A stretch of DNA of 42,624 nt, from sequence record NC_073077.1; one strand, given 5' to 3'. Origin of the DNA: Escherichia phage vB_Eco_Maverick. This document shows positions 22,299 to 42,621 of this stretch, piece by piece. The position numbers and the translations under genes were made by a program. Within the stretch, counting starts at the first letter, position 1, and the number at the start of each line of letters is the position of its first letter. The notes under the pieces are model-generated. The model saw only the letters and a program-made list of their open reading frames with translations, did not search any database and was not told the DNA's origin.

Positions 22299-22812
22299 TT
22301 AATCTTCCAGTTCGAAATAGGTTTCGACGATTTCTTTTAACTCTGTGTGGAAGTCTTCGACGTCGTCATCTTCCAGCTTGGCGATTGATTTTATCTCGAA
22401 CGATTCCAGCAGGTCGTCGAATTCGTCGTTCGCATCGTCGTCATCACCACCGGCGATAATCGCGGCATACTGTTTGATTTCGTCGCGCATCTCCGCCAGC
22501 GGATCGGCATCTTTCTTGCCTTTGCCTTTCGCTTTTTTAGCCTTAGCCGGTTTTTCGTCTTCGGCGTCTTCGTCGTCGTCATCTTCTACGACTTCTTTTT
22601 TGGCCTTACCCTTCGCCGGTGCTTTTTTAGCTTTAGCCGGTTTTTCGTCTTCGGCTTCATCGTCGCCATCTTCGACAACTTCTTTTTTGGCCTTAGACGG
22701 CTTCTTGTCGTCCTGCTTACCAACGGCAGCGCCAACGGTTTCATAATGCTTAGCGATGACTTCCAGTGCTACTACGCCGCGAGTGATCAGGTTTACGATT
22801 TGCTCAAACATG
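22299..22812 (-). CDS. charged-repeat protein (acidic blocks alternating with Lys/Ala-rich blocks)
   Basis: Start at MFEQIVNL with GGAG Shine-Dalgarno 8 nt upstream; contains two near-identical ~78-bp DNA repeats (22531-22608 and 22621-22696) encoding KKEVVEDxDDEAEDEKPAKAKKA; the longer frame to 22991 lacks an RBS. Confidence 0.55.
22531..22696. repeat. intragenic tandem repeat, two ~78-bp units with a ~90-bp period
   Basis: gcttttttagccttagccggtttttcgtcttcggc... repeated with a few substitutions. Confidence 0.8.
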
Positions 22813-23048
22813 GTATATCTCCGATTGGTTAAGTTTAGGTGTCGGCAGTTAACTTCGTCGGTGGCCTTAACATATTGCCAGGTTGCGCGTTCTCCCGTTC
22901 GGGTAGTGGACCTGGTTATATAATCACGGTTGGGAATCCTGACACTTCGATCCGGCCCCTGCGTTGCCCCTCTCCAGTTTGCGTCCTGCATCCTGTCGAC
23001 GGAGTGAATGATAGATTGGTTGCAGGATGGGTGTCAACAACTAATTTC

Positions 23049-23112
23049 AAAAAAAAAGCGCCGAGGCAAAATGCGACGGCGCTAACCAATAAGAGACAAT
23101 GAGACGGGAATT
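23049..23112 (-). ncRNA. candidate small RNA (~60 nt) ending in a strong minus-strand terminator
   Basis: Minus-strand hairpin gcgccg-N13-cggcgc followed by U9 (plus 23049-23082) with an upstream minus-strand TTGAAA-N17-AATAAT promoter (plus 23113-23141); no minus-strand gene lies upstream. Confidence 0.25.
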
Positions 23113-23141
23113 ATTATTACACGCGTGCGCGCCCGTTTCAA
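23113..23141 (-). promoter_or_regulatory. candidate sigma70-like promoter for the putative small RNA
   Basis: Minus strand TTGAAA (plus 23136-23141), 17-nt spacer, AATAAT (plus 23113-23118). Confidence 0.3.
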
Positions 23142-23213
23142 TATCCAAAGGATTTGACACCATGCAGTTTTAGGTGTAGTTTCGTTGGTCATTAACCAAC
23201 AGGAGACTGAATT

Positions 23214-23543
23214 ATGAATATCAAAGAAGCAATTGAAGTGTTATCTAATGCAATCCGCGGCGAAGCGGGTAAATCCTGGTATTACACAAATGCGGTGGAT
23301 ACTCTGTTATTTGAAGTGTCCAGATTATCGCGTGCTGAGAAGGAGCTTACCGCGAAGCTGGAATTGCTCAACGGCACGGCAGCAAGCAAGCTGCAAAAAC
23401 ACAATGAAGAAATGGAAGAATACAAAAAGCAGGTTATCCGTTTGCGCAATGAGGGAAAGTCATGGGCAATGATCGCCGAGTTGACCGGAATTAATCAGAG
23501 CACAGTGCGCTCCTGGGTACGCAATAATAAAACTTCAAAGTAA
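23214..23543 (+). CDS. helix-turn-helix DNA-binding protein (putative transcriptional regulator)
   Basis: 109 aa with coiled-coil centre and C-terminal HTH (KSWAMIAELTGINQSTVRSWV); AGGAG Shine-Dalgarno; first gene of the plus-strand block. Confidence 0.55.
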   Translation: MNIKEAIEVLSNAIRGEAGKSWYYTNAVDTLLFEVSRLSRAEKELTAKLELLNGTAASKLQKHNEEMEEYKKQVIRLRNEGKSWAMIAELTGINQSTVRSWVRNNKTSK

Positions 23544-25829: not shown

Positions 25830-25928
25830 ATTGGTTGCCGATATGGGAATTCCCATATCGCTAAACGGTTAATTTGTGCGCGCATTGGTTGCCATTTTGA
25901 GTGTTTTTATCTGGTCGTATTGGTTGCC
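25830..25928 (+). repeat. three direct ATTGGTTGCC repeats flanking a perfect 20-bp palindrome
   Basis: ATTGGTTGCC at 25830, 25884 and 25919; GATATGGGAATTCCCATATC at 25840-25859. Confidence 0.8.
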
Positions 25929-25978
25929 GTGTAGTGTAAATATAATGAATAGTTATGCAGTTTTATTGCATAAAGTAG

Positions 25979-26128
25979 GCGGGACAGAAAGCGGGACAAA
26001 CAGGGGGCGGGACAAAGCGGGACAGCACCCCCGTCCCGCCCCGGATGACGCGGCTTCCAGAGGAGCGGGACAGCGGGACAGCACCCCAGTCTTTCAGACT
26101 AGACGGGGGTCAACGGCCCCCCTCGTCT
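25979..26128. repeat. iteron cluster: six direct GCGGGACA octamers plus one inverted copy, ending in a 28-nt GC hairpin (internal copy)
   Basis: GCGGGACA at 25979, 25991, 26007, 26017, 26065, 26073; inverted GTCCCGC at 26033; hairpin agacgggggtcaacggcccccctcgtct at 26101-26128; TGCATAAA box at 25967. Confidence 0.85.
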
Positions 26129-26295
26129 GAGACTGAATAAAATCCGGGGATTGCAAAATACACGGCAGCATGATGCGAAGTGCGGTCGTCGATGAACTAG
26201 GCAACCAATGCGGGTTGTATTATGCTGAGTGAAAAATGCAGTTTTCAGCCACAGCTGATATCGATCAACTTTTTCATGCGCGTGATTAATATTGG

Positions 26296-26324
26296 TTGCA
26301 TTCACCCCAGCACCCTGCTATATT
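26296..26324 (+). promoter_or_regulatory. sigma70-like promoter TTGCAT-N17-TATATT inside ATTGGTTGCA motifs
   Basis: TTGCAT 26296-26301, 17-nt spacer, TATATT 26319-26324, about 28 nt upstream of ATG 26353. Confidence 0.4.
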
Positions 26325-26352
26325 GGTTGCACACCAACATGAGGACTGAACA

Positions 26353-29452: not shown

Positions 29453-29460
29453 ACAATTAA

Positions 29461-29484
29461 GCCCGGAATTAACCGGGCTTTTTA
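29461..29484 (+). terminator. rho-independent terminator after the lysis cassette
   Basis: gcccgg-aattaa-ccgggc stem followed by ttttt. Confidence 0.7.
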
Positions 29485-29666
29485 TTGCTTGACTCGCAAC
29501 CAATCAACGAGAGGAGTAATCAAGATGGCACGTAAAGATATTTGGGTATTAGCGATCTGGACCACCGCGGCTTTTATCGGCATGGTTATTTGCGAATTGA
29601 TATAGCCCGCCGCCATATGGACCGTGGTATATTGTCCACGGTCCACTAATCAGGAATTAATTAAAT

Positions 29667-42327: not shown

Positions 42328-42621
42328 GCGGGACGTCCCGCTTTGTCCCGCCCTGTAAAACCGCATATCTAATCACTTTCATTGCATAAACTCAAAGCGG
42401 GACAGGCGGGACGTCCCGTTTTGTCCCACCCACGAAATGTGCATACCTATTCGAATTTCGTGCATAAAACAAGCGGGACAGAAAGCGGGACAGACAAGGG
42501 GCGGGACAAAGCGGGACAGCACCCAGTCCCCGCCAGTGCTGCCGCGGTTTTCAGCCGATCGGGACAAGCGGGACAAAGCCCAGTCTTTCAGACTAGACGG
42601 GGGTCAACGGCCCCCCTCGTC
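42328..42621. repeat. iteron cluster: GCGGGACGTCCCGC palindromes, about seven direct GCGGGACA octamers, two TGCATAAA boxes, ending in the same 28-nt hairpin (terminal copy, continues into bases 1-200)
   Basis: Palindrome at 42328-42341 and 42406-42418; GCGGGACA at 42397, 42473, 42485, 42501, 42511, 42568; TGCATAAA at 42383 and 42461; hairpin at 42594-42621. Confidence 0.85.

Follow-up and report, generated by a model that had tools for sequence, protein, structure and literature searches.

A credible small-RNA gene with its own promoter and terminator in the divergent early control region of a virulent Dhillonvirus

Several phage RNAs are known to control gene expression from within the early or late control regions that encode them. 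The oop RNA of lambda and the sar RNA of P22 are made from constitutive promoters and act on a neighbouring phage gene by pairing, as cis-antisense RNAs that overlap the controlled gene or its ribosome-binding site. The c4 RNA of P1/P7 and the CI RNA of P4, which belong to temperate phages and satellites, are cut from the leader of the operon that they control and adopt tRNA-like folds, and one such RNA can shut off an operon. Lambda 6S RNA and StxS are late-promoter transcripts that begin at a constitutive promoter and are ended at tR', StxS being a terminated transcript that acts as an Hfq-binding regulator. Known regulatory small RNAs of strictly virulent coliphages are very few, and none is known from Dhillonvirus, a genus widely used in phage-defence work (SECphi18, BASEL isolates) and in phage-therapy collections. 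Here, we analyse a minus-strand cassette of promoter, short transcribed segment and terminator, located at 23141-23049 in the genome sequence of Escherichia phage vB_Eco_Maverick (NC_073077.1; all 42,624 nucleotides were analysed and are called the window below). We regard it as a credible phage small-RNA gene, for which we propose a mechanism. What is new is the element, which is unannotated, and a candidate small RNA in Dhillonvirus, where our literature search found no earlier report of one; phage small RNAs equipped with a promoter and terminator of their own are an already known class.

The window belongs to a virulent, HK578-like siphophage of E. coli in the genus Dhillonvirus, about 44 kb in size; in the region tested the window shares 99.5% identity with vB_Eco_CS16, and 174 phage records match it. 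The candidate cassette sits in a 400-bp non-coding region that separates two divergent early operons, that is, between the minus-strand operon and the plus-strand regulator gene, where an original prediction made from the letters of the window had placed it. Read along the minus strand, the order of elements is TTGAAA (23141-23136), a 17-nt spacer ending in TGT, AATAAT (23118-23113), AATTCCC, GTCTCATTGTCTCTTATTGGTTA (23105-23083), a hairpin and T9. The promoter, P1, is thus the one predicted; it scores 10/12 in a promoter scan, carries an extended -10 element (TGtAATAAT, 23113-23121, with the TG at 23121-23120), lies 31 nt from the terminator hairpin and is annotated as a promoter in HK578. 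Behind a discriminator at 23106-23112, a transcript expected to start at G23105 (plus or minus 1-2 nt) and to end within the U-tract would give a minus-strand RNA of about 54-57 nt (23049-23105). Its first part would be the U-rich 5' segment GUCUCAUUGUCUCUUAUUGGUUA (23083-23105), 23 nt of unpaired sequence and the candidate seed, followed by the terminator hairpin (23057-23083), with a 7-bp outer and a 3-bp inner stem, and by a U9 tract (23049-23057), the longest T-run attached to any hairpin in the window. In the outer stem, GCGCCG (23082-23077) pairs with CGGCGC (23063-23058) across the loop TCGCATTTTGCCT, and A23083-U23057 forms the closing pair. The predicted fold of 23105-23049 leaves the first 22 nt unpaired before the hairpin and has a minimum free energy (MFE) of -16.7 kcal/mol (z = -3.4 against shuffled sequences), in agreement with the strong terminator, a GC stem followed by nine U, that had been proposed. 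A generic terminator scan missed it solely because its outer loop exceeds 8 nt. On the plus strand TAACCAATAAG comes after the hairpin, so the terminator is not bidirectional.

Promoter-like sites scoring at least 10/12 number three in the whole window, against about 3.9 expected by chance; P1 and the main leftward early promoter P2 are two of the three and lie on the same strand, 105 nt apart, and the probability of a chance 10/12 site within a given 60-nt stretch is about 0.003. Upstream on the minus strand there are plus-strand genes only. The original prediction had put the nearest minus-strand gene about 12 kb away; none lies nearer than 6.4 kb, where the CS16 record annotates a 44-aa hypothetical protein (about 29512-29646) with a bidirectional terminator of its own (29459-29480). 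Neither the promoter scan nor the annotation revealed another minus-strand promoter or gene between that gene and P1, and because no minus-strand gene or promoter-like site lies upstream in this interval, P1 is the sole predicted source of transcripts for the terminator. A promoter coupled to a Rho-independent terminator so as to yield a discrete transcript of 50-300 nt is thus present in silico, and we think it probable that a discrete RNA is made. In GenBank, all three promoters (P1, P2 and the rightward one) are marked in the HK578 record and the terminator in that of CS16; an RNA gene is annotated in neither.

The pattern of substitutions among relatives carries the argument further. The region was gathered from IMG/VR, metagenomes and GenBank, with two pattern searches anchored outside the RNA to avoid bias, and 26 distinct versions were obtained. 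In these relatives P1 keeps its hexamers, its TG extension and its 17-nt spacing, with 0 of 6 columns variable in the -10 hexamer, and all 7 columns of the discriminator, from the -10 to G23105, vary and include 1-nt and 3-nt indels. Variation then falls to 1 of 23 columns in the unpaired 5' segment, 2 of 6 in each stem arm and 4 of 13 in the hairpin loop. Position 23105 is accordingly a sharp boundary between variable and invariant sequence, and it coincides with the start site expected from the position of the -10. In the lineage of phages Ioannina and LM40P1 the stem GCGCCG/CGGCGC has become UCCCCG/CGGGGA through two double compensatory changes (G-C to U-A and G-C to C-G); standard pairs fill 50 of 50 pair cells of the stem, and the T-tract, 8 to 14 long, is never shorter than 8. 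Because it combines a fixed -10, a free discriminator, an invariant 5' segment and a compensated stem, this pattern fits a promoter-RNA-terminator unit.

Of 153 Dhillonvirus records, 145 carry an identical 30-mer that takes in the seed and the first arm of the stem, the exceptions being the Ioannina/LM40P1 lineage, TheodorHerzl (a single U-to-C change) and Opt212 (a 5-nt tandem duplication), and the whole control region is identical to that of the window in phages Oekolampad, slur05 and Gluttony, among others. This 30-mer is conserved more tightly than the flanking coding sequence, where the neighbouring helix-turn-helix (HTH) protein goes down to 76-78% identity. So tiny an RNA gene, unchanged across nearly all of these genomes, points to a strongly selected function that current annotations miss. 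The small-RNA reading of the original prediction is strengthened by the conserved P1 hexamers, the compensated stem, the invariant 23 nt and the absence of anything else needing the terminator, all of which support a short independent transcript; it is qualified by two findings, that the RNA is antisense to no predicted transcript and that the motif it contains suits a DNA-binding protein better.

Searches for other identities of the cassette gave little. A coding role was rejected, the only plus-strand mini-open reading frame (23099-23173, 24 codons) being broken in relatives by frameshifting 1-nt and 3-nt indels, and no minus-strand reading frame with a ribosome-binding site lies inside the RNA. 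Rfam 15 returned nothing at gathering thresholds in the whole window and, at E up to 10, only weak terminator-driven matches of 14-22 bits against cut-offs of 40-72 bits; ARAGORN found no tRNA or tmRNA. A blastn search of 5,426 complete E. coli genomes, with the promoter and the RNA as query, gave no match at E up to 10; scanning 185,579 species genomes for a 19-mer gave two matches, in Bacteroidales metagenome-assembled genomes with unrelated flanks, against about 4 expected by chance. On these results a host homologue and a long antisense target were rejected. Serratia phage Smarc3 and Cornellvirus VSiA, whose helicase-primases are 44-45% identical, have compact divergent promoter regions with no orphan terminator; the cassette therefore appears specific to Dhillonvirus, as judged from these two phages of other genera.

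The divergent operons lie on either side of the cassette. The leftward operon starts at ATG 22811 with a minus-strand gene (22299-22811) for a lysine-rich and acidic-rich 170-aa protein of unknown function (PHROG 3127), followed by recombination and replication genes down to about 10300. The rightward operon starts at 23214 with a plus-strand gene (23214-23543) for a 109-aa protein with a C-terminal HTH (HTH_23 / sigma-70 region 4-like; Pfam, PHROG 9366), followed by the helicase-primase gene and then by lysis and structural genes. P2 (23008-23037, minus strand; TTGACA, 18-nt spacer, TATCAT) scores 11/12 in the promoter scan. The rightward early promoter (23154-23182, plus strand; TTGACA, 17-nt spacer, TAGTTT) was read directly from the sequence, its -10 element lying under the threshold of the scan; it stands back to back with P1, with 12 bp between their -35 hexamers. 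A palindrome, TTGGTcattaACCAA (TTGGT-N5-ACCAA, 23185-23199), overlies the predicted rightward start site and is a likely DNA operator.

In the leftward operon a strong minus-strand terminator (22160-22141; 7 GC pairs, then UAUUUUUAG) already stands behind the second gene. The immediate-early transcript made from this operon is therefore probably short, and polymerase would have to read through the terminator, or start at a second promoter, to reach the replication genes; a promoter-like site scoring 9/12 follows the terminator closely, at 22092-22064. On the right side a strong terminator near 26000 again follows two genes, so that early transcription seems to be short in both directions. Additional terminators are annotated farther along the leftward operon. 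Two features of the promoter spacers may be recorded here. The GC-rich P1 spacer (23119-23135) contains an 8-bp palindrome, CACGCGTG, inside a 14-nt alternating purine-pyrimidine run, GCGCGCACGCGTGT, and the alternation is kept in variants (GCGCGCGCGCGTGT); such a stretch could bind a regulator or be sensitive to supercoiling. One of exactly three plus-strand copies of ATGCAGTTTT falls in the rightward promoter's spacer (23162-23171), the other two lying after the helicase-primase gene (25955-25964 and 26236-26245), a count that is not above chance once one mismatch is allowed.

How might an RNA from this cassette act? With its U-rich 5' segment of 23 unpaired nt, its GC-rich hairpin and its long U tail, the predicted RNA is built as enterobacterial base-pairing RNAs of the Hfq type usually are, and UUAUUGGUUA, which is A/U-rich, unpaired in the MFE fold and directly 5' of the hairpin, forms together with U9 (8-14 U in relatives) what by its sequence would be an Hfq-binding module. 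The explanation that we favour as a whole, and that we judge to fall just short of evenly balanced, is an independent small-RNA gene acting through its invariant 5' segment. Host sigma-70 RNA polymerase would start at P1 (23141-23113), at or next to G23105, and stop in the U9 of the intrinsic terminator (23083-23049), and the invariant 5' segment of the resulting RNA would be its working part. The likeliest action of this segment would be to pair with the start regions of the first genes of both operons, at UAACCAAUCGGAGAU in the left mRNA and at UAACCAACAGGAGAC in the right mRNA, covering the Shine-Dalgarno sequence, and a stable RNA accumulating from a constitutive promoter would damp or shut off immediate-early expression. 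That the RNA sequence acts by base pairing is a tentative suggestion, on which we lean slightly towards doubt; that the two early start regions are its targets we consider unlikely. Should the RNA repress the first genes of both early operons, it would constitute a compact RNA-based timing switch. The fullest version of the idea, an Hfq-type RNA of about 55 nt serving as an anti-ribosome-binding-site timer, with a seed that resembles an inverted early start region and closes both immediate-early operons together in an RNA-based switch from early to middle expression, is likewise speculative and improbable as it stands.

The complementarity on which the proposed targets rest is as follows. The left site (22817-22831, minus strand) lies over the Shine-Dalgarno of the first leftward gene and pairs through 8 bp, a mismatch and 6 bp; the right site (23193-23207, plus strand) lies over that of the first rightward gene and pairs through 7 bp, a mismatch and 7 bp; each interaction spans 15 nt and each duplex is predicted at -17.9 kcal/mol. 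Among 58 annotated start regions, the left site ranks second and the right site third for the 23-nt seed, and first and second, respectively, for its 13-nt 3' part. Shuffled seeds do as well in 0.44% of cases on the left, in 0.6% on the right and in 0.02% on both. The extended pattern TAACCAAyvGGAGA has three good matches in the window, namely the two start regions and, in reverse orientation, the RNA gene, and the consensus fold of the left leader places AACCAAU in the loop of a small hairpin.

A number of observations weigh against regulation by such pairing. Seed and targets show no compensatory change among relatives, and cognate pairs are no better than non-cognate ones: in Ioannina/LM40P1 one U is missing from the seed and the left target differs at 2 positions, weakening the predicted pairing from -17.9 to -14.0 kcal/mol, and the seed variants of TheodorHerzl (U to C) and Opt212 (5-nt duplication) are unmatched by target changes. 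HK578 keeps the RNA but lacks the right-hand target, and the Shine-Dalgarno of the right gene varies among relatives whereas the seed does not. Other 40-nt stretches of the genome pair with the seed equally well or better (-19 to -24 kcal/mol), and we rejected the two start regions as the best pairing sites genome-wide; they are the best among start regions only. A general anti-Shine-Dalgarno role was also discarded, GAGAC lying upstream of only 5 of the 58 starts, and the two GUCUC repeats define no phage-wide target class. Sister genera have ACCAA beside the Shine-Dalgarno of their first genes but no cassette, and a literature search found no Dhillonvirus transcriptome, Hfq-binding data or small-RNA report.

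Further doubt comes from the motif that the seed contains. The original prediction had noted that the RNA carries a copy of a local motif, and TATTGGTTA is indeed present at 23091-23083, with exact TTGGTTA occurring only 3 times in 42.6 kb, all within the 400-bp intergenic region; the copy is nevertheless part of a larger family, which leaves its role ambiguous. The 9-mer GCAACCAAT occurs in 17 copies in the window against about 1.3 expected (9761, 11496/11511, 13412, 13429, 16365, 23021, 25836, 25890, 25925, 26203, 26297, 26328, 27002, 29498, 36732 and 36745), mostly intergenic, facing either way with respect to local transcription and frequently arranged in tandem or inverted pairs; the copy in the P2 spacer (site B, 23015-23023) is invariant in relatives. 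Because the AACCAAT core is found genome-wide and independently of orientation, a DNA-binding protein fits it better than RNA pairing, and the GCAACCAAT family is probably, to judge by its sequence and distribution, the binding site of such a phage protein. This protein, perhaps the adjacent HTH protein, could explain the motif copies without RNA pairing.

It is from here that the principal rival takes its strength. The cassette may be a control element at the level of DNA, with the RNA as a by-product: a phage protein, for which the 109-aa HTH protein is the most plausible candidate, would bind an AACCAAT-family operator downstream of P1, the hairpin and T-tract would keep P1 transcription out of P2, and the T-tract with adjoining A/T-rich bases would serve P2 as an UP-like element. 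The distribution of the family, including its copy in the P2 spacer, the palindrome over the rightward start site, the HTH gene next door, the nearly invariant 11 nt between the T-tract and the -35 hexamer of P2 and the lack of compensatory change between seed and targets all speak for it, as does a related motif, TTGGTTGCAAA, in the control region of Smarc3, which has no cassette. An operator of 8-9 bp, however, leaves the equal invariance of the other 15 nt (GTCTCATTGTCTCTT) unexplained, while the adjacent discriminator varies throughout; moreover, the GC prefix that marks the genome-wide motif is missing at the RNA gene and at both start regions, whose copies instead share a 15-nt extension, including the Shine-Dalgarno, that is absent from the 17 generic copies. 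HK578 bears on the same point. In this phage (L017, 1376-1412) the HTH protein is longer and divergent (142 aa, 44% identical) and the palindrome GCATAgTATGC replaces TTGGTcattaACCAA over the rightward promoter, which looks like a swapped regulator-operator pair, and the remainder of the control region, the RNA gene included, is unchanged despite the different protein and operator. On balance we rate control at the DNA level as rather unlikely.

Three other accounts seem to us more improbable still. P1 might not be a working promoter, its terminator merely stopping stray antisense transcription through the helicase-primase gene from disturbing P2. The count of promoter-like matches in the region, which is not above chance, and the literature search, which found no expression data, are compatible with this, but the hexamers, TG extension and spacing of P1 are conserved beside a freely varying discriminator, a 10/12 match at exactly this place is improbable by chance (the 0.003 given above), the helicase-primase gene contains no minus-strand promoter-like site upstream and the invariance of the 23 nt would go unexplained, so that we give the idea a low rating. 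We rate a shade lower still the notion of an antitermination substrate of the lambda late-promoter type, in which P1 constitutively yields a short terminated RNA until a phage factor modifies polymerase at P1 and lets it read through this terminator and those inside the 12-kb leftward replication operon. The cassette does lie upstream of that operon and in the same direction, the operon does contain the strong internal terminator after two genes and more annotated downstream, and the invariant early transcribed region could hold a loading or pause signal; yet a near-consensus P2 between terminator and operon makes the operon independent of P1, none of 12 window-encoded early proteins scanned against Pfam, in a scan that was not exhaustive, matched Q, N or another antiterminator family, and inspection by eye of the first 25 transcribed nt revealed no clear -10-like pause element. 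Least probable of all, in our view, is that P1 belongs to a replication origin, where transcription would open the DNA or provide a primer beside the gene for the helicase-primase, with the AACCAAT copies as iterons. Its location between the replication-gene operons, the short motifs repeated here and the A/T-rich stretch after the terminator would suit an origin, but an efficient terminator 55 nt downstream is ill-suited to a primer or R-loop role, and denser repeats at 25830-26330, just after the helicase-primase gene (6 of the AACCAAT family and 6 of GCGGGACA), make a better origin candidate.

The motif GCGGGACA itself occurs in 18 copies against about 2 expected, six of them at 25979-26080, within the 400-nt non-coding region after the helicase-primase gene and among six AACCAAT-family copies, and eleven near the window ends (42344-42575 into 4-78); the non-coding region might serve as an origin, a packaging site or a regulatory hub. 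The window also overlaps itself, positions 41-95 and 42536-42590 carrying the same sequence, and because its ends repeat in this way a circularly permuted or terminally redundant genome is suggested.

A second RNA structure was observed in the same control region. The 5' leader of the leftward operon contains a structured element of about 148 nt (22845-22993, minus strand; also at loci L054-L059 and L062-L064) that starts about 10 nt after the -10 of P2. It is present in most Dhillonviruses and is replaced by about 12 nt in loci L005, L008, L011 and L014. Homologues occur in Drexlerviridae (PHB17, JK16, JLBYU38, tunus), in Jilinvirus Arya, in Serratia phage MQ-4 and in Klebsiella phage KMI8. 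Where the context was inspected (PHB17, Arya, JK16, IMG/VR loci) the element is in sense orientation, and the three records that carry annotation show it flanked by co-directional genes; most copies outside Dhillonvirus directly follow a TATAGT-like -10, usually with a ribosome-binding site next. Its core is highly conserved (GGAGAGGrGCAACGCAGGGGC..GATCGwAGTGTCAGGATTCCyAACCGTGA ... AGAACGC ... GGCyACCGACGAAG), and several helices show compensatory changes, one of them occurring in seven different complementary forms. A search of Rfam at E up to 1 gave no match, and its sequence suggests a leader or riboswitch-like RNA, as yet uncurated, of siphophages that infect enterobacteria.

Returning to the candidate small-RNA gene, we can set it beside the systems named at the outset. 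Like lambda oop and P22 sar (about 70-77 nt), it is short, has its own sigma-70 promoter and intrinsic terminator and lies inside an early or immunity control region. Unlike them, it overlaps no predicted opposite-strand transcript, the rightward promoter lying beyond the RNA start and firing away from it and no plus-strand promoter-like site lying to the left, and any pairing would take place in trans through 15-nt imperfect matches; it has no sequence or Rfam similarity to either RNA. With lambda 6S RNA and the StxS RNA of Stx phages it shares an arrangement in which a strong terminator stands within tens to hundreds of nt of a constitutive promoter, the pair preceding a long operon that is read in the same direction, but here the separate, near-consensus P2 intervenes between terminator and operon, and no Q-like protein is found among the 12 early proteins scanned. 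As is proposed for the candidate, the c4 RNA of P1/P7 and the CI RNA of P4 use a short seed that can pair with short repeats of their own control region, next to a ribosome-binding site; the candidate differs from them in having its own promoter and terminator and a single hairpin, and in being encoded by a virulent phage.

The build of the candidate also invites comparison with the Hfq-dependent small RNAs of enterobacteria, including prophage DicF (53 nt). It departs from these in being encoded by a virulent phage, in having the phage's own early genes as its predicted targets and in having no homologue in the E. coli genomes, species genomes and Rfam searched. It resembles them in its similar size, in its unpaired and conserved candidate seed and in the A/U-rich stretch beside a GC-rich terminator hairpin; it further shares with them a U tail of at least 8 and predicted target sites that overlap the Shine-Dalgarno.

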